A stretch of 64,000 nucleotides of DNA from a virus: positions 11,208 through 75,207 of the IMG/VR virus record IMGVR_UViG_3300029875_000005; one strand, given 5' to 3'. A program made the translations under genes and the position numbers. Positions 1 to 44,995 of the stretch are shown piece by piece. The first letter of the stretch is position 1, and every line of letters starts with the position of its first letter. The notes below the pieces were generated by a model. That model saw only the letters and a program-made list of their open reading frames with translations, ran no database searches and was not told the DNA's origin.

Positions 1-2349
1 AAGAGTTACATCGGAAGCACGATCATGAGAGCGAGAGGACACAAGTACCTGAGCGAAACAAACGTACTGGCGCAGATTGGCGCGATGGGTAACAGAGCTA
101 TCAAGAATGGCGGTATGAACGCTATCCGTCAGGCATTTGCAAGATTCGTAAGAAACAACTCGAACAATAATCTTGTGACGGAGACTAGGGTTTGGTACGC
201 CGATGACCCTATCACTCACACCACCGTGGAGCGTTACCCAGACATTCCCGAGGACGCTACGGCTGATGAAATCAATCAGATAGTAGCAGACTTCAATATG
301 GAAATGAAGGATTTGGAATCAAAGGGTTTGGCGACAAAGGTGTATCGAAGAGGAAGAATCGGCTATAAGTTCCAAAGAGCAGAGAATAAATCGCAGCATA
401 TCGTAGATGTGAAGATTGCCGGCAGAACCCATACCTTTATTATCAACGGAAATCCTAGAGCGGCGCAGGCTCTGAATGGATTGCTGGAGAACTCGGGCGC
501 CAAGGGAATCATGAAACCATTGAGTTCTATCTCAAGAATGATGGCGCAGTTGTGTACATCATATAACCCTGAGTTCGTGATGCGAAACATCATGCGTGAT
601 GCGGAGTTTGCATCTAGTAACGTGACTTCTAAGGAAGGTGCAAGATATGGTTCGCTCTGGGCGAAGTACTATGCTCAGTTGGGGTTGTATAAGGGTGCAT
701 CGAATATCAGCTTCAAGGATTTGAGCGGAACTACTGGCTTGGGCTTGTTTGCCAAGTATCGTAACGGAACACTTGATACTTCTGACAAGGTACAGAGATA
801 TTTCAAGGAGTTCATGGAGAACGGCGGCGAAACTGGTTGGGTTCAGATTAAAAACATGCAGGACTGGACCAAGGAGTACAAGAAGGATGTGAAGAGTGAA
901 AGAAGCAAGATTGACAAGGGCGGTGCTGCCCTTCGTGACTTCTTCTTCGGAAATCTGGCGAACATCAACGAGGTGGCTGAGAATATCGCCAGATTCGCTA
1001 CCTACTGTGCGAGCCGAGACAGTAACCGCTCTATCATCCGTTCGGTCTATGATGCGAAGGAGGTATCTACCAACTTCAACCGCCATGGTAGCGGTGATGC
1101 CATCAAGAGTTTCAAGAACGGAGAAATGACTGGCGGCAAGGCGGCTGCAAGATGGGCTTACGGATTTACGGCTAGCTATCTCAGACATTGTTCTATGTTC
1201 TTCAATGCCGGTATTCAGAGTACAAATCTTCTTGTGAAGAACTTGAAAAATCATCCTGTGGGTACTTCTATCAATATGCTTGCTATTCCTTTTGCCCTCG
1301 GTGCGCTAGCTGCACTTGGTAACAACGTGCTGATTGCTAGCGAGGACGAGAAGGACAGAAAGGGAGTGAAGGACCCATACGGCGAGTTGCCTGACTACGT
1401 GAGAAGAAACAATCTCTGCATCTACAAGGGTAGCGGTCAGTTTGTTACTATTCCGCTTGCCATCGAGTTGAGAGCCTTCTATGGTTTGGGTGACTTGGCG
1501 GCTGGATTGACCTTCTCGCCAAACGTAAGCGGGCAGAAGAATCCTGCCTTGGATGCCGTGGGCTGTATGTCGCAGCTTGTGCCGGTGATGGACTATCTCG
1601 GCAACTCTTCGGCTGGCAAGGAGCCATTGAACGAGACGATCAAGGCTATCTCTCCTTCAGCCCTATCTCCTTTCGTGGAATGGGAGCTAAATACCGACTG
1701 GAAGGGTGCGCCGATTGAAAGACGTGGTGACTGGAATGAAAATTCCCCTGCTTGGCAGAGAGCCTACAAGGGTGTGCCTGACGGATATATGGCTGTGAAT
1801 AAATGGGTGAATGCACAGACCAACGATGTAGCCAAGGGTAATGAGGATATGCTGGGTAACAGTTTCCTGGATATGGTGACGAACCCTAGTATGCTAAATC
1901 ATTACATCGGTGGTATAGGTGGTGGCGCTGCTACCTTTACCGAGCGAGCTATCGGTGTTATCAAGCACGGAAGCGACACGGAAACCAAGGATATTCCTTT
2001 CCTTCGCTCTCTTCTTTATACTCCTAGTGAGCAGAACAGCTTGCAGAGAACCAAGAGTAAGTGGTATAACTACAAAGACGAAATGGAGAAGACCATGGCC
2101 AACGTGGACCGCCTGAAATCGAAGAACGTTCCGATTGACAAGAGAATCACAAATATCGGTGAGTATTTCCACTTCCAAAACTCCAAGGAGGCTGCCAAGG
2201 TTAGAATCATCGAGCTGGCAGAGAAGCAGATGAAGCGATGGAAGAAACTCAGAGATAAATCTTCAGATACCGAGAGCATCAACTTCGCTAATCAGAATAT
2301 TGACAGAATCATGATGGATGCGGTTGATGAACTGGATAGATTGGAATAA
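1..2349 (+). CDS. C-terminal ~780 aa of a very large virion-associated (internal/ejection or polyvalent-type) protein; 5' end outside window
   Basis: Frame 1 is open from nt 1 into listed ORF 25..2349, with a stop at 2347-2349. It is long, has no competing ORF and sits among late genes. I recognise no catalytic motif. Confidence 0.55.
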   Translation, partial: KSYIGSTIMRARGHKYLSETNVLAQIGAMGNRAIKNGGMNAIRQAFARFVRNNSNNNLVTETRVWYADDPITHTTVERYPDIPEDATADEINQIVADFNMEMKDLESKGLATKVYRRGRIGYKFQRAENKSQHIVDVKIAGRTHTFIINGNPRAAQALNGLLENSGAKGIMKPLSSISRMMAQLCTSYNPEFVMRNIMRDAEFASSNVTSKEGARYGSLWAKYYAQLGLYKGASNISFKDLSGTTGLGLFAKYRNGTLDTSDKVQRYFKEFMENGGETGWVQIKNMQDWTKEYKKDVKSERSKIDKGGAALRDFFFGNLANINEVAENIARFATYCASRDSNRSIIRSVYDAKEVSTNFNRHGSGDAIKSFKNGEMTGGKAAARWAYGFTASYLRHCSMFFNAGIQSTNLLVKNLKNHPVGTSINMLAIPFALGALAALGNNVLIASEDEKDRKGVKDPYGELPDYVRRNNLCIYKGSGQFVTIPLAIELRAFYGLGDLAAGLTFSPNVSGQKNPALDAVGCMSQLVPVMDYLGNSSAGKEPLNETIKAISPSALSPFVEWELNTDWKGAPIERRGDWNENSPAWQRAYKGVPDGYMAVNKWVNAQTNDVAKGNEDMLGNSFLDMVTNPSMLNHYIGGIGGGAATFTERAIGVIKHGSDTETKDIPFLRSLLYTPSEQNSLQRTKSKWYNYKDEMEKTMANVDRLKSKNVPIDKRITNIGEYFHFQNSKEAAKVRIIELAEKQMKRWKKLRDKSSDTESINFANQNIDRIMMDAVDELDRLE

Positions 2350-40643: not shown

Positions 40644-41147
40644 TTATAAATGTTTCTGTTCTAAAAGTTTGTCTACTTCCTTCTGATAAAAGGATATCAA
40701 CTGATTATACTCGAAGAGTGACCAGTTCTTGTTTTCAGTTCTTGCCCTAACCTCTATCAAATCAACCCTCTGCTCGCCAATCTGCTTGATAAGCGCACGG
40801 CGATACATCTGAATATTGCCTTGATTGAAAATATTGCAAGCTACACATTGTGGCCGGCAGTTATCTTCGCTGAATCGGGTTGACATGTAACGTCTCGACA
40901 TGTAATGACCGTTCTGAATCTCTTTCCAAGGGAAAACCTTGCCGCAACTGATACATCGGCAATAACCTTTATCATCAGAATATTTCAGTCGAATATATTT
41001 GGAAAAGACTGCATCGAGTTTGTCTCTCAGCTTACTTTTGCTAAGTCCGGCTTTCGCCTTCTTCTTTTCCTGTTCCTTCTTGGCTTTATCCCAAGGAGTC
41101 TTCTTTATAGGTGTCCTCTTGAGAGGAGTTTTCCTTTTTAAACCCAT
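40644..41147 (-). CDS. ninG: NinG-family recombination protein
   Basis: FSKYIRLKY..CRCISCGK...QNGHYMSRRYMSTRFSEDNCRPQCVACN..QGN...Y is the NinG pattern. Start taken at MGLKRKTPL. Confidence 0.8.
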   Translation of the reverse strand: MGLKRKTPLKRTPIKKTPWDKAKKEQEKKKAKAGLSKSKLRDKLDAVFSKYIRLKYSDDKGYCRCISCGKVFPWKEIQNGHYMSRRYMSTRFSEDNCRPQCVACNIFNQGNIQMYRRALIKQIGEQRVDLIEVRARTENKNWSLFEYNQLISFYQKEVDKLLEQKHL

Positions 41148-41364
41148 ATTGCACGTAATTATCATTTGTAAAGTTTGAATACTCGCCCTCGGGCTTTCCG
41201 ATGTCTGAGGACACATTTTTAATCTTAGAGTTGAGGATATTTATTTTCCTCAGCTTTGACTCGAAAATTCCCAAGGGTGCCCAAGGGTTTCTTTCGAGTT
41301 CTCTGTATATTTCGAGAACCTTTCTCCGGTACTTGTGGAGAGTAGGTTCGGATAAATCTATCAT
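41086..41364 (-). CDS. Hypothetical protein
   Basis: Start taken at MIDLSEPTLHKY. The listed extension is a translated hairpin. Confidence 0.45.
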   Translation of the reverse strand: MIDLSEPTLHKYRRKVLEIYRELERNPWAPLGIFESKLRKINILNSKIKNVSSDIGKPEGEYSNFTNDNYVQYGFKKENSSQEDTYKEDSLG

Positions 41365-41385
41365 AAGCCATTGATTTTGAAGTTT

Positions 41386-41419
41386 AAGAAAAACCTGCCC
41401 ATCCTCACGGACGAGCAGG
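41386..41419 (-). terminator. Conserved hairpin + U-run (copy 2)
   Basis: The minus strand reads CCTGCTCGTCC-GTGA-GGATGGGCAGG. The 11-bp stem includes 2 G-U pairs, which would be C-A mismatches on the plus strand. TTTTT follows. Confidence 0.6.
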
Positions 41420-41499
41420 AAAGAATCAAAATTTTTTTTAAACAATGTTTGCTGCCGCTGCAGCGAATAATCATACACAACAAACAAATACATAATAGT

Positions 41500-41601
41500 C
41501 CACCTGTAGGATTCGGACCCAACTTCCCGATTTGATAAGAATGTATTAAGGATTTACACAAAACAGTTTCGGGCGTGCTAACCAATTACACCATCGGTGG
41601 A
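41500..41601 (-). ncRNA. tRNA-like element with a 38-nt insertion in the anticodon-arm position
   Basis: The minus strand reads TCCACCG-AT-GGTGTAATTGGTTAGCAC-G-CCCGA-(38 nt)-TCGGG-AAG-TTGGGTCCGAATCCTAC-AGGTGGA. The D-arm and acceptor are good, but the T-arm is imperfect and there is no 7-nt anticodon loop. Confidence 0.35.
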
Positions 41602-41984
41602 TAACGGCATCATGCGCCACCATGAATTTAAGAGCCATGCTCACCGTTTCAGCTATCAGTCATAAAGACTGATGCTCGGGGATGCGTACTTATTGAAATA
41701 ATAATTGCGCGTTCCCTTATAATGACTTAACACTATTCGACTTTACACTTTTCCAATATGTCAAAGAACTTATGCCCCAAAAGGGCAATGGGATTGTTCC
41801 GGAAACTGCTATATATAATAAGGTATAAAACGAAAGGTGCTGGTAGAATGCTCGACCACAACATTTCCTTCTGGTTCGTGGCGCATGAATTCAACGCAAA
41901 CAACTTATATTGCCACTGGGTCTATACCGCTCCACACCTAACGATTTCAAGAAACATTATAATAACAATATCCAAAACTATTTT

Positions 41985-42056
41985 GGGGATTCGAGGCGAG
42001 TTGAACGCCTTTGCTCGGGTTTCCCCGCTCACTCCGAGTGAGCTAGCTCGATTCCC
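41985..42056 (-). ncRNA. Cloverleaf-like element with canonical T-arm but no anticodon loop
   Basis: On the minus strand, an 8-bp closing stem (GGGAATCG/CGAATCCC, one A-A mismatch) encloses three hairpins. These are GCTCACT-CGG-AGTGAGC, CGGG-GAAA-CCCG and AGGCG-TTCAACT-CGCCT (a T-loop consensus). Confidence 0.4.
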
Positions 42057-42223
42057 ATGTATCACTCCTATGCTCACGCACAAGAGTGAATTGATAGTTT
42101 ACAAATAAGAAAAAGAGCCTTTCTTAAGCAATCGTTTAACTCTATGCTCACGCATATCCAATTTAAAACGCATTTTGTCTGAATAACTAATCTAAAAGTT
42201 CAACAGCCAAATATTTCACACAT

Positions 42224-42430
42224 TTACACACTCACTAGTTGTGGCACCTTAACAGGCTCTGCTCCGTAGCGATTCAGAGCACAGGAACGAATGTCCTGAG
42301 CCTGTTGGCTATTACTCCGGTAAGCAAGAGCATTGTAGACAGTAGTCTTGCCACAACCAAAAATTTTCATGATTTTAGGAATTTTATCTTTATCAATCAA
42401 TATTTTTTCTATTTTTACGACTTTATTCAT
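42224..42430 (-). CDS. Cro-like small HTH protein
   Basis: Start taken at MNKVVKIEK. The HTH is IMKIFGCGKTTVYNALAY. It is divergent from the cI-like gene. Confidence 0.55.
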   Translation of the reverse strand: MNKVVKIEKILIDKDKIPKIMKIFGCGKTTVYNALAYRSNSQQAQDIRSCALNRYGAEPVKVPQLVSV

Positions 42431-42441
42431 ATTATTTTTTG

Positions 42442-42502
42442 TAAATTTGCACCATAAATAAGTTTTGAACGAGTTTTGTTCTCGTTTACGGATGCAAAGA
42501 TA
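42442..42502. promoter_or_regulatory. Face-to-face promoters and palindromic operator of the lysogeny switch
   Basis: Plus-strand -7 box TAAATTTG (42442-42449), minus-strand -7 box TATCTTTG (42495-42502), and inverted repeat AACGAG-N7-CTCGTT (42468-42486) between them. Confidence 0.5.
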
Positions 42503-42543
42503 CATGTTTGTAGACAAATATCCAAGGATATAGGCATTAATTT

Positions 42544-42948
42544 ATGGTTAATTTACGTATTTACACAAATATAAACACTAGCAGTATGGAAGGATTAAGA
42601 GATAGAATCAACGAGGTAAGAGACCATTACAGGCTGACTAACAGAGGGTTTGCTGACGCTATCGGGGCAAAACCTGCTGCTACGAACAATTATTTGAACG
42701 GCACAAAGGAGCCTTCAATGGAGTTTATAAACAGAATACTGACTACATACGTAGACATATCAGCAGATTGGCTACTTTGTGGCAGAGGCAGTATGTTTTA
42801 CGATGCAGACAAGCAGACGGACGAAAAACTGCTGAAAGAACTAGCAGAAACAAAAGTAAAGTTGCTAGTACAGGAAGGAGTGGTTAAGGAGTTAAAGCAA
42901 ATCATCAGCGAGAAGATTGCTGAAAGAGACAAAAGCCTAGTTGGCTAA
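42544..42948 (+). CDS. cI-like XRE-family HTH repressor
   Basis: RINEVRDHYRLTNRGFADAIGAKPAATNNYLNGTKEPSMEFINRIL is a classic XRE HTH. It is adjacent to the integrase. Confidence 0.7.
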   Translation: MVNLRIYTNINTSSMEGLRDRINEVRDHYRLTNRGFADAIGAKPAATNNYLNGTKEPSMEFINRILTTYVDISADWLLCGRGSMFYDADKQTDEKLLKELAETKVKLLVQEGVVKELKQIISEKIAERDKSLVG

Positions 42949-42993: not shown

Positions 42994-44127
42994 TTACATC
43001 TTTCCTTCGAGGGCATCGAAAGCAGATTGTACGTCCTTATTTAATGTACGTGCGTATCTAGTAGTTTGACGCAAGGTAGTGTGTCCAAGCACCCTTGCCA
43101 CAATGTTGATAGGCATTCCCTTAGACAGGAATAAGGTTGCCGCAGTCGCTCTACCCATGTGGGTATGCAGCCTGTCAACGCCAACCATCTGCCCGATCGC
43201 CTTCAGATAATCATTATACTTCTGATTCGTCATTCTAGGCAGCTTGAAGTCATACTTCTGTAGTATCTCCAGGGCAGGTTTGAGAAGTTGGAATACGAAA
43301 TCCGTATCTGTTTTCGTTCTCTTAGCGTGATAGAACATCTTGCCGCCAATCTCCTCGCAGTTAGTATAATCGAACGATGCAAGGTCAGAGTATGCAAGTC
43401 CGGTATAGCATTGGAAGAGGAACAAATCTCTTGCATGGAGAATATGAGGTGTTGAGAGTTTCAGTTTCTTGATGGCAGCAAACTGCTCTTCGGTGACACA
43501 ATCAACATACTGCTTTTCTCCCTTACCAATATGGAATGGCAGAAACTTATAAGGATTCTGCTCAATAAGTCCGTCTATCATCGCATCATTGATGAACAAC
43601 TTGAGATACTTGTGATAGTCATAGATTGTGCATTGAGCCTTATCCTGTCTGTGGAGATACTCATCCATTGAACGCACCTTCGATACGTTGCAGTCTTGGA
43701 ATGACTTTATCTTCCCCCACGTCTTCAGAAATTTGATAAAGACATCATAGCGTTTCTTGGTATGCTCGCACACCTTACGCTCATTTCGTCTTCTCTCGCA
43801 GTACTCGATGAAAGAAGTTCCTTCGTCTTCTCCGTTCATCTGTGAGATAACCACATTTAAGTCACAACAGCCTTCCTTAACCATCTTACTGATGATTTCG
43901 TTTGCTCTCGCGCGGTATGCCTGTATGATTTCATTCAGTTCATCCGCATCTTTTCTCTTGATAACCATCTTTGACGCATCAGACCATTGTGTAGTTGTCA
44001 CTTTCACGCCTGTGGAAAAGTACTTCCTTTGACGCTTGGCACAAAAGCATAATTCTACCGAAACTTCATGTTTTGAGGTCGCTCGCTTCAAACGATTGTG
44101 AATAATACTTAAATTAATTTTTGCCAT
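42994..44127 (-). CDS. int: Tyrosine recombinase / phage integrase
   Basis: R...CYTGLAYSDL...HTHMGRATAATLFLSKGMPINIVARVLGHTTLRQTTRYA carries the R-H-R-Y catalytic pattern. Start taken at MAKINLSII. Confidence 0.9.
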   Translation of the reverse strand: MAKINLSIIHNRLKRATSKHEVSVELCFCAKRQRKYFSTGVKVTTTQWSDASKMVIKRKDADELNEIIQAYRARANEIISKMVKEGCCDLNVVISQMNGEDEGTSFIEYCERRRNERKVCEHTKKRYDVFIKFLKTWGKIKSFQDCNVSKVRSMDEYLHRQDKAQCTIYDYHKYLKLFINDAMIDGLIEQNPYKFLPFHIGKGEKQYVDCVTEEQFAAIKKLKLSTPHILHARDLFLFQCYTGLAYSDLASFDYTNCEEIGGKMFYHAKRTKTDTDFVFQLLKPALEILQKYDFKLPRMTNQKYNDYLKAIGQMVGVDRLHTHMGRATAATLFLSKGMPINIVARVLGHTTLRQTTRYARTLNKDVQSAFDALEGKM

Positions 44128-44175
44128 TTTGATAACACATTTTTTACAAGGTGATAACACATTGATAACACACCT
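44128..44175. repeat. Three direct GATAACACA repeats abutting the int start
   Basis: ttttGATAACACAttttttacaaggtGATAACACAttGATAACACAcc. A fourth GATAACA lies at 44479. Confidence 0.7.
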
Positions 44176-44467
44176 TCCGATTCAACAATTTGCGTGAATA
44201 ATACAAACCGTTGTGATTCAGATAGTTATACCCAAAATGCGTTTAAACCAGTTTTAAACCAGTTTAGAAAATCAATCTTTATGACATATCTCTTTAAAAA
44301 ACAAAAAGCAATCTATATAAGTATCTGTTATTCAATACGTTATATAGACTGCTTATTTGATTTTTTCTTGACTAAACGTTGCGTTTTTACGCCTAAAAAG
44401 TGATTCCGTTGGGGTCACAACCAATTTCTCACAAAACTGTCTATATCAGCCACTTATCTTTCGGGTG

Positions 44468-44475
44468 CAAAGATA
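44468..44475 (-). promoter_or_regulatory. Host-type -7 box TATCTTTG pointing toward int
   Basis: The reverse complement of caaagata lies inside the inverted repeat TATCTTT-N7-AAAGATA. Confidence 0.4.
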
Positions 44476-44539
44476 GTGATAACATTTTTATAGCACAAAT
44501 TTTTCATTACTTTTTAACTATATTTTGCAAAAGTTGAAA

Positions 44540-44571
44540 TTTGGCGGTTTCAAATACTTTTCTTACTTTTG
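44540..44571 (+). promoter_or_regulatory. Strong host-type promoter (-33 TTTG, 20-nt spacer, -7 TACTTTTG)
   Basis: Both consensus elements are present at canonical spacing. Confidence 0.6.
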
Positions 44572-44578
44572 CACTCGT

Positions 44579-44687
44579 CAATGTGACGATTGATATAAGA
44601 CTTCGATATTCAACCTGTATTCAATAGGTTCAATATAAATCACGAAATCCCTAGGTCGGCGTCACACGACTTGGGGATTTTTATTTT
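44579..44687 (+). ncRNA. ~105-nt terminated transcript (sRNA or cis-regulatory leader)
   Basis: A promoter lies at 44540-44571. A 12-bp hairpin (44647-44678: ATCCCTAGGTCG-N8-CGACTTGGGGAT) plus TTTTTATTTT closes the unit. It contains no ORF. Confidence 0.5.
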
Positions 44688-44995
44688 CCCCGAGTTTTTG
44701 GCGGTCATGGTAGTTTGTCGGTTAACTCCACTCGGCTACGCTGACTTTAAACCCAAGTCGCAAGAGGACGCATGGCGACATCGCAGGATTTGATAGCAGA
44801 AGGCGAGCAAGGCGGTAACTACACCGAAAGCTGCTTAGGTCAACTGATGTAGATTATCAAGTGACCAGATGATGGGGGTGATTGCCTCAGCGGAAATAAT
44901 TTTTTGTGTGCTATCGCATACGTGTGCGATAAGGGGGATTCTAGAATCCGAAGGCTCTTAGCCTAGCGGTTTTAACATTAAAAATAAAAATAGTT

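Follow-up and report, generated by a model that had tools for sequence, protein, structure and literature searches.

The stretch of viral DNA analysed here, 64,000 nt of IMG/VR record IMGVR_UViG_3300029875_000005 (hereafter the window), holds most of a ~75 kb temperate phage, and between two genes of its early region we found a non-coding RNA locus with two tRNA-derived cloverleaves that do not decode. We favour, at about even confidence, the explanation that these cloverleaves serve as tRNA-like punctuation of a longer transcript and as a scaffold for the display of a conserved RNA segment, and not in translation. The locus occupies a gene-free gap of 859 nt, from position 42223 down to 41365. 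Its main features are given below, where all coordinates are window positions; L-numbers in the text denote related loci from other contigs.

42224..42430, minus strand: cro-like small helix-turn-helix (HTH) gene, 68 aa, the upstream boundary of the locus, from the list of open reading frames (ORFs)
42063..42088, minus strand: hairpin H2, 11 bp and GUGA-capped (CACUCUUGUGC-GUGA-GCAUAGGAGUG), directly 5′ of module 1
41985..42056, minus strand: tRNA-like module 1, a four-way junction with no anticodon (minimum free energy [MFE] cloverleaf, z = -3.0)
41605..41646, minus strand: three-way-junction leader, 42 nt (RNAalifold)
41499..41601, minus strand: tRNA-like module 2 (hand-segmented alignment and pair count)
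41531..41568, minus strand: insert in the anticodon loop of module 2, 38 nt (motif conservation)
41386..41419, minus strand: terminator, 11-bp GUGA-capped hairpin CCUGCUCGUCC-GUGA-GGAUGGGCAGG and then a U run, the third GUGA copy
41086..41364, minus strand: small ORF of 92 aa with its ATG at 41364, bounding the locus downstream

An earlier note on this DNA had singled out a gene-free stretch at this place, and this was borne out, the stretch being slightly longer than claimed (its ends are the cro-like stop, 42224, and the next start, 41364). Within the gap, the listed ORFs are all short or on the wrong strand. For a plus-strand ORF that the earlier note had dismissed (41758-42108), 23 of 25 relatives show stops or frameshifts and Pfam, PHROG and NCBIfam gave no match, and since the relatives differ in this region by indels of 1, 2, 4, 31 and 71 nt, the region is untranslated. 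The cro-like protein on the upstream side matches phrog_16858 at 1.5e-10. On the downstream side, the 92-aa ORF is a real gene, because its nucleotide diversity (pi) among relatives is 0.065 at the third codon position and far lower, 0.003-0.005, at positions 1 and 2; its product has no match in Pfam, PHROGs or NCBIfam. A mechanically listed ORF of 135 aa (41086-41493, minus strand) spans the terminator, and conservation and codon-position diversity indicate that its true start is the ATG at 41364. The same ORF overlaps the 5′ end of the NinG ORF (40644-41216), and the real NinG start is probably further inside the latter. The orientation of the T-loops and the strand of the terminator indicate that the locus is transcribed in the minus-strand sense of the early operon, in agreement with the earlier placement after the cro-like gene and up to a terminator. 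The latter is an 11-bp hairpin (41419-41394, minus strand) followed by a T run.

The locus is common to ~140 viral and metagenomic contigs. Searches with the flanking proteins retrieved ~45 IMG/VR contigs in which the region is 90-98% identical. Through two remoter cro-like proteins (61-63% identity) we reached further contigs of unchanged gene order, where the gene-free gap measures 531-975 nt and is alignable only over window positions 41508-41645, at 72-77% identity. A pattern scan with the insert motifs of this 41508-41645 piece reported 57 viral loci and five loci in genome contigs; the five were one Segatella copri metagenome-assembled genome (MAG), three MAGs labelled as other taxa, which are probably mis-binned phage contigs, and one chance match. 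Scanning with the leader pattern reported 81 human-gut metagenome contigs. The loci from the pattern scans sort into ~22 sequence types; several groups align to window positions 42015-41086 at only 64-67% identity, and it is this divergence that made the structure testable. Blastn of the region against 50,697 GenBank phage records gave no match. The host phages are temperate phages of human-gut Segatella/Prevotella and form an abundant family.

For the leader and module 2 we aligned 18 representative sequences by hand-made segments, each verified against its locus and padded with N to hold the register, and counted pairs on the stated structure. Standard pairs filled 96.4% of 612 cells, against 32-48% when the partners were slid by 1-3 columns; compensatory change on both sides was seen at 20 of the 34 pairs, and none of 500 shuffles was as good. 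The leader of the window consists of helices P1 (CGGU/GCCG), P2 (GAGC-AUG-GCUC) and P3 (UCAUG-GUGGCG-CAUGA) with a junction strand UUAAAU, and RNAalifold gave P3 as UCRUG-GUAGCG-CAYGA across the relatives. Across the representatives 31 of the 42 leader columns are invariant, and P1-P3 are 100% paired, with one covarying pair in each and no broken cell. In module 2, UCCACC pairs with GGUGGA to form the acceptor stem; the D arm reads GUGU-AAUUGGUUA-GCAC, the anticodon stem CCCGA/UCGGG and the T arm UUGGG-UCCGAAU-CCUAC. All seven acceptor pairs covary, as do four of five pairs in the anticodon stem and four of five in the T stem, and the cloverleaf is kept across at least seven acceptor-stem variants and at least five anticodon-stem variants. 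The earlier note had described both modules as tRNA-like, and both (41985-42056 and 41499-41601) are indeed cloverleaves, on the minus strand.

In the relatives the body of module 2 is near canonical (AGCUCAGUUGGUUAGAGC and GUGGGUUCGAGUCCCAC). On the Rfam tRNA model, whose gathering score is 29, the copies of L104, L163 and L207 obtained 47.0, 47.6 and 49.3 bits, and aragorn -i reads the relatives' module 2 as a tRNA with an insert of 31-33 nt, the anticodon calls varying between Leu, Val and SeC. The window copy is degenerate, with a 6-bp acceptor stem that includes a G.A mismatch, a 3-nt connector, a mismatched T stem and a C at T-loop position 55, and for this reason it is missed by ARAGORN and Rfam. 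This most degenerate type is also the commonest.

Module 1 is built of an acceptor-like stem GGGAAUCGA/UCGAAUCCC, a hairpin GCUCAC-UCGGA-GUGAGC at the D position, a stub GGG-GAAA-CCC at the anticodon position and a T-arm GGCG-UUCAACU-CGCC. Six other divergent versions also fold as cloverleaves (7/7 types), and these carry at the anticodon position a loop of 3-4 nt or a branched domain of ~45 nt. The window copy was not called by ARAGORN or by the Rfam tRNA model. Its homologues in L103, L170 and L190 were called as tRNAs by ARAGORN, each with an abnormal anticodon arm (one without U33, one with a 6-nt loop, one with a mismatched 6-bp stem); that of L170 obtained 45.5 bits on Rfam tRNA, and in L096 the slot of module 1 holds a genuine tRNA-Arg(CCU). 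Together, the scores of 45-49 bits in relatives, the aragorn -i calls and the tRNA-Arg(CCU) of L096 indicate that the modules are tRNA derivatives by ancestry.

A structured element lies directly 5′ of each cloverleaf in every group. For module 1 this is a hairpin of the H2 type, found in 7/7 divergent groups with a conserved top and a covarying lower stem. Two 13-bp direct repeats that the earlier note had reported (42068-42080 and 42142-42154) are exact, and they proved to be the tops of two GUGA-capped hairpin copies, the terminator being a third. CGTGAGNATNG occurs three times in the 64 kb, where 0.32 copies are expected, and all three are inside the region. The terminator hairpin is conserved in relatives and is followed in most of them by a T-rich tail. 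Two further hairpins lie upstream of H2:

42142..42157, minus strand: partial copy of the GUGA-capped hairpin (AUAUGC-GUGA-GCAUAG), direct repeat copy 2, with a CGTGAGNATNG match
42107..42125, minus strand: A/U-rich hairpin AAGAAAG-GCUCU-UUUUCUU and then a U-rich tract (MFE and centroid folds)

The A/U-rich hairpin may be a weak terminator after cro; the segment is variable among relatives (pi 0.068). The GUGA hairpins as a family have the conserved top GUNC-GUGA-GNAUAG, found in the window at 41399-41409, 42068-42078 and 42142-42152 on the minus strand. Four related hairpins, three of them GUGA-capped, are present in the gap of L092 (5255-5640), a GUGA hairpin directly precedes the real tRNA-Arg in L096 (5345-5385), and second BLAST hits revealed a further copy 1-3 kb downstream in relatives. 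These hairpins could be paralogous terminators, 3′-end protectors or a protein-binding, nut-like site.

Neither module has a normal anticodon loop. At the anticodon position of module 2 the relatives carry a loop of 31-48 nt with no conserved U33 or anticodon; in the window it holds the insert. The insert contains two near-invariant motifs, M1 (UGUGUAAAUCCUUAAU; UGUGUAAAUCCUUAAY across groups) and M2 (UCUUAUCAAA), and the spacer between them measures 3-7 nt across groups, differing by steps of 1 nt. As this spacer varies from 3 to 7 nt, the insert is non-coding and any anticodon read from it is meaningless. Both the insert and the leader stay near-invariant even between groups that are only 64-77% identical in their flanks. 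A peptide or tag, CKSL(T/I)(Y/H)SYQ, was rejected as its frame is broken by the 1-nt spacer changes; a local UGU/ACA hairpin closing M1 holds in some groups only and is not claimed. A kissing contact of M1 (UCCUUA) with UAAGGA of the middle domain described below would join two invariant strands, the second of which is missing, together with that domain, from some phages. In the metagenome contig L207 (2293-2372), the invariant leader and the same tRNA body are combined with a plain extended hairpin in place of the insert, so that nature provides a possible control that has no insert.

Within the close group, pi was 0.003 in hairpin H2, 0.004 in the leader, 0.010 in module 1, 0.010 in the insert, 0.027 in the middle domain and ~0.046 in the rest of module 2, compared with 0.044-0.127 at the third codon positions of the flanking genes and 0.155 in the spacer before the terminator. 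The strongest constraint falls on the 42-nt leader, the 38-nt insert, and module 1 with its GUGA hairpin. The leader, the insert and module 1 are 5-30x less diverse than neighbouring third-codon positions. Strong purifying selection acts on module 1 and on the cargo that is not tRNA. Low pi in the leader, H2, module 1 and the insert, and ~0.046 in the module 2 body, fit a tolerant scaffold with a strictly conserved cargo, the scaffold being one that stays paired over longer divergence.

How such a locus might work can be put as follows. The region would be transcribed from an early or internal promoter up to the terminator at 41394-41419, and the acceptor/T-arm halves of the cloverleaves would be recognised by the host RNase P on the 5′ side and by RNase Z or exonucleases on the 3′ side. 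Bacterial RNase P needs only an acceptor/T-arm minihelix and processes tRNA-like substrates that are not tRNAs (PMC4919922). The transcript would then be cut at ~42056/42057 and ~41601/41602, leaving upstream pieces that end in H2 or in the three-way-junction leader and would be protected in this way from 3′ exonucleases, while the cuts would also release stable tRNA-shaped small RNAs. Module 2 would be the chassis that displays the invariant M1 and M2 in a large open loop to an RNA or protein partner. The punctuation part of this proposal is suggested by the structure that always lies 5′ of each cloverleaf, by the remodelling of the anticodon arm in every group and by the real tRNA in L096.

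Several points weigh against this explanation. We infer the processing by RNase P and RNase Z wholly from sequence. The window's module 2 is a poor tRNA with no encoded CCA, and RNase P might process it only weakly. By itself, punctuation leaves the near-invariance of the insert and the leader unexplained; some further, specific partner is needed to account for it. The GUGA hairpins might be no more than paralogous terminators. As for the promoter, a sigma-70 scan of the region stayed at chance level, and the one copy of the Bacteroidetes TAnnTTTG (-7) box inside the region is unconserved, so that no promoter can be assigned.

The same remodelled cloverleaves could instead be tRNA-mimic decoys that titrate a tRNA-recognising host factor, such as an anticodon nuclease, some other defence directed at tRNAs, or an enzyme that modifies or charges them, the altered anticodon arms making the modules uncleavable or inhibitory. 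We consider this possible but unlikely. Phage tRNAs with altered anticodon loops are reported to escape defences of this kind that target tRNAs. In favour of a decoy, compensation has kept the acceptor, D and T arms of both modules in every group, only the anticodon arm being remodelled, and the early operon is presumably a common place for anti-host functions. However, a decoy should keep its likeness to tRNA, and the idea is weakened by the commonest lineage, where constraint is lowest in the tRNA body of module 2 and canonical features are gone from it (U55C, the 6-bp acceptor, the mismatched T stem). In addition, the strongest constraint falls on parts that are not tRNA, the leader and the insert, and no tRNA-targeting system was identified in the data.

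The remaining modules of the locus are the following:

41957..41986, minus strand: short hairpin CCAAAA-UAG-UUUUGG and then the 12-mer UUGUUAUUAUAA, after module 1 (alignments)
41828..41950, minus strand: middle structured domain, block C (alignments, RNAalifold)
41718..41799, minus strand: block D, with hairpin UGCC-CUUUUGG-GGCA (41773-41787), UCUUUGACAUAUUGGAAAAG (41749-41768) and, further on, UUAAGUCAUUAUAAGG
41647..41717, minus strand: variable segment with a 7-bp hairpin at 41655-41673 (deletion or replacement in relatives)
41451..41464, minus strand: hairpin GCUGC-AGCG-GCAGC with an invariant AGCG loop, after module 2, in 189/212 loci

The first 11 bases of UUGUUAUUAUAA are invariant in the groups examined. 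The middle domain has conserved strands GGUG..GCGGUA, an arm of variable length (GUGGC...GCCAC), which pairs as GUGGC/GCCAC, GGG/CCC or GUC/GAC depending on the group, and an invariant ACCAKAAGGAAAU; its 3′ part is a hairpin AAUGUU-GUGGUCG-AGCAUU, with three covarying pairs by RNAalifold, followed by CUACCAGCACCUUU. The hairpin of block D is a terminator-like match, and the block is conserved across groups, including L092. The UCUUUGACAUAUUGGAAAAG region resembles the first ~25 nt of the Rfam model for DUF2693 RNA and could be a shared promoter-like or protein-binding element, although no standard promoter spacing fits. The 71-nt segment at 41647..41717 is deleted in L022, L041 and L045 and replaced by unrelated sequence in other groups. 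The stem of the AGCG hairpin covaries, as GCUGC/GCAGC, GUUGC/GCAAC, GAUGC/GCAUC, UGUGC/GCACA and AUUGC/GCAAU.

The earlier note had proposed the region as a candidate large structured RNA and had pointed to the ornate phage RNAs GOLLD and ROOL as a known class. Its structural observations held up: all the listed features were found where they had been placed or within a few bases, among them hairpins at 41655-41673, 41773-41787 and 42027-42043 and the GAAA and T-loop hairpins, and the structure of this conserved region is backed by covariation among related phages. The genomic setting and the tRNA-like parts also agree with the suggestion; membership in those families is not supported, and a single RNA is disfavoured. 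In its most specific form the idea is that one multi-domain RNA of ~0.65-0.7 kb, from H2 to the terminator, is the Bacteroidota-phage counterpart of GOLLD/ROOL, which we regard as doubtful. Modules usually co-occur in the same order across groups, and most groups keep all of them, the module 1 anchor TTGTTATTATA lying upstream of the leader in 192/223 loci. Size, prophage setting and tRNA association are as described for GOLLD and ROOL (PMC5737381). The whole 838-nt stretch 41386-42223 folds with MFE z-scores of -4.2 (minus strand) and -3.9 (plus strand), a stability that none of 20 shuffles reached, and the middle domain has invariant strands that find no local partner.

Against a single large RNA, natural variants gain and lose modules independently. 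L118, L122 and L139 do without the middle domain; the L096 set consists only of a GUGA hairpin, the real tRNA-Arg, the leader and module 2, with neither module 1 nor the middle domain; other variants do without the 71-nt piece; and L092 has a different assortment, including another tRNA-like element with an AGCG-capped anticodon arm. Such independent loss and gain argues against an obligate unit, as do the hypervariable spacers between modules. The only long-range helix that had been proposed, from an 11-bp inverted repeat (41610-41620 and 41878-41888), was rejected: the repeat is exact in the window, but the G that completes its right arm is unique to it, all relatives having an A, and this arm sits in the loop of a local hairpin. 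RNAalifold gave local helices only, and no Rfam match to GOLLD, ROOL or another large RNA was obtained. Given the independent gain and loss of modules and the unconserved long-range helix, the sequences favour a modular locus over one giant RNA. The broader alternative, by which the locus yields either a ~0.7 kb multi-domain particle like GOLLD/ROOL, possibly oligomeric, or a regulatory RNA in which module 2 targets the repressor mRNA, likewise seems unlikely to us.

The repressor in question belongs to the neighbouring genes, which together with RecT and NinG make up a temperate-phage gene set:

42586-42948, plus strand: cI-like HTH repressor
42994-44160, minus strand: integrase

The order integrase, cI-like gene, cro-like gene, gap, NinG is retained in relatives. 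Downstream of the gap the window encodes the 92-aa ORF, NinG, a dUTPase, an SbcC-like ATPase, RecT and a giant polyvalent protein. The gene for the latter (~5,770 aa, with ddrB-ParB, AAA_34, Helicase_C_4 and LPD38 domains) lies partly at window positions 25-2349 and beyond 60100, running over the ends of the window, and was also seen in L242-L243. Seven viral contigs (L006, L009, L010, L031, L001, L033 and L037) begin or end ~520-565 nt upstream of the cro-like start, a shared point exactly between the cI-like gene and the integrase, which marks either a called prophage boundary or a break in the assembly.

A target for the insert might be sought in the cI-like mRNA. In such a scheme, modelled on the C4 antisense RNA, M1 and M2 would pair with this mRNA at 42615-42652 (about codons 10-22) and lower repressor synthesis after early transcription has started. 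The pairing is bipartite and antiparallel, UCUUAUC/GGUAAGA and UAAAUCCUU/AGAGGGUUUG when G.U is allowed; three such sites occur in the 64-kb window, where 0.33 are expected, one of them being the insert's own antisense, and the site is found at the same codons in 58/104 distinct loci. There is a precedent in C4 of P1/P7, an immunity regulator processed by RNase P (PMC4919922). Yet the finding was made post hoc, and the RNAduplex energy of -19.3 kcal/mol is ordinary (rank 213 of 1274 windows). The site is limited to the cI allele family RDHYRLxNRGFA, where coding conservation explains it, and it lies inside the coding region and not at the ribosome-binding site. Moreover, L116, L108, L092 and L103, which have other cI alleles, keep M1 and M2 while the complementarity is weak or elsewhere. 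We therefore treat the bipartite complement as a weak lead only, and the antisense scheme as quite improbable. A target search with the insert returned only scattered 8-11-mers. Separately, the 5′ edge of M1 has a complement near the start of cI, the 11-mer AUUUACACAAA in the 5′ region at ~42556-42566, for which L186 has a matching variant, AUUUACACAUU.

The modules might also be functionless pseudogenes of a decaying tRNA gene cluster, as real or near-real tRNAs occupy the same slots in relatives, the window copies fail ARAGORN and the Rfam tRNA model, and the module 2 body evolves about as fast as third-codon positions in the close group. The compensation that kept the cloverleaf through at least seven acceptor-stem and five anticodon-stem variants speaks against decay, as do the 5-30x lower diversity of module 1, leader and insert relative to synonymous-like sites and the near-invariance of insert and leader where flanks are 64-77% identical; this reading is already disfavoured, and very improbable.

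Even less probable is an intron-containing tRNA gene from which the 31-48 nt insert is spliced out. While aragorn -i and the Rfam tRNA model accept the relatives as a tRNA with an insert, the loop that would remain has no conserved U33 or anticodon, the ARAGORN calls vary between Leu, Val and SeC, the window copy has a defective acceptor stem and T arm, and the insert is more conserved than the supposed exons. With 31-48 nt the insert falls far short of a group I intron, and bacteria are not known to have a protein-splicing route for tRNA introns. On these grounds we rejected the intron.

It is just as improbable that the locus acts as DNA, in the form of an attP, a replication origin or an operator array: both strands fold about equally well and repeats are present, but the compensatory changes preserve a strand-specific cloverleaf, T-loop and D-loop signatures and G.U pairs, there are no iterons, and the only repeat family is that of the hairpin tops. 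A simple attP, which the earlier note had named as a refuting alternative, fails too, since the attP is probably elsewhere, in an AT-rich gene-free stretch of 835 nt (44161-44995, 31-33% GC) that adjoins the integrase. Just beyond the integrase, L002 and L021 have a host tRNA-Arg(TCT), whose position suggests integration at that gene.

Phage tRNA genes are usually explained as helpers in codon usage or as replacements for tRNAs destroyed by host defences. The locus described here indicates that temperate phages of human-gut Segatella/Prevotella also keep tRNA-shaped RNAs that are unable to decode, one of which has, in place of an anticodon, a near-invariant cargo of 30-40 nt, next to a near-invariant structured leader of 42 nt. 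If punctuation and display are indeed its functions, it would be a natural example of a tRNA scaffold and a bacterial analogue of the tRNA-like punctuation of eukaryotes and herpesviruses. It offers a concrete, experimentally tractable RNA in the lysis/lysogeny control region of important and little-studied gut phages, and a candidate for an RNA family that is absent from Rfam 15. What appears to be new is the architecture of this phage tRNA-derived non-coding RNA, tRNA derivation itself being of a known kind; neither Rfam 15 nor our full-text literature searches yielded a description of such an architecture.

Catalogued families were compared as follows. A scan of the whole window with Rfam 15 at the gathering score gave zero matches, including to GOLLD, ROOL, tmRNA and other large phage RNAs; at E<=10 on positions 41300-42600 there were chance-level partial matches only, and at E<=1 on five related loci only the tRNA model responded. 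ARAGORN found zero tRNA or tmRNA genes in the whole window. The two modules were called by neither program and have no 7-nt anticodon loop with U33, while their cloverleaf stems, kept by covariation, and their T-loop are those of a tRNA. Compared with phage tRNAs (RF00005), they share the cloverleaf and the T-loop and D-loop signatures, the relatives reaching 45-49 bits and L096 having the real tRNA-Arg(CCU), and they differ in the GAAA stub or the 38-nt insert and in the attached leader and GUGA hairpins.

GOLLD (RF01998) and ROOL (RF03087) resemble the locus in their (pro)phage location, their association with tRNAs and their several hundred nt of structured non-coding RNA. Unlike them, it consists of independent modules with no conserved long-range helices, is found in phages of the host phylum Bacteroidota, and gave no match to their covariance models in the window, at E<=10 in 41300-42600 or in the five related loci. 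DUF2693 RNA (RF02956), another Bacteroidales phage motif, matched block D at 21.5 bits (E = 0.14, gathering score 81.3); the alignment covers only the unstructured 5′ 45 nt and skips the structured core, so that the resemblance is limited to the unstructured 5′ end. In tmRNA, as in module 2, a tRNA-like domain is interrupted by a large functional insert, but here the D arm and the anticodon stem are intact, there are no pseudoknots, no tag frame in the insert and no alanine-type acceptor, and neither ARAGORN nor Rfam called a tmRNA in the window.

C4 of P1/P7 (RF01695) is cut by RNase P from an immunity-region transcript and exposes loops, to which the bipartite complement of the repressor mRNA in one cI allele family may be likened; in contrast, the locus has no sequence or covariance similarity to C4 (no match in the window or in the five related loci), its chassis is a full cloverleaf, and its proposed pairing with a target is statistically weak and not universal. 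The non-decoding tRNA mimics of MALAT1 (mascRNA) and of the tRNA-miRNA units of murine gammaherpesvirus 68 (MHV68) likewise form part of longer non-coding transcripts and attract RNase P and RNase Z, which set the ends of the RNAs beside them. Both enzymes cut MALAT1 at its tRNA-like element (PMC4919922). Those are eukaryotic and animal-virus systems of unrelated sequence, and for the locus here the same mechanism is only proposed. In their probable way of working, such tRNA-like processing modules and scaffolded small RNAs appear to be its closest analogues.

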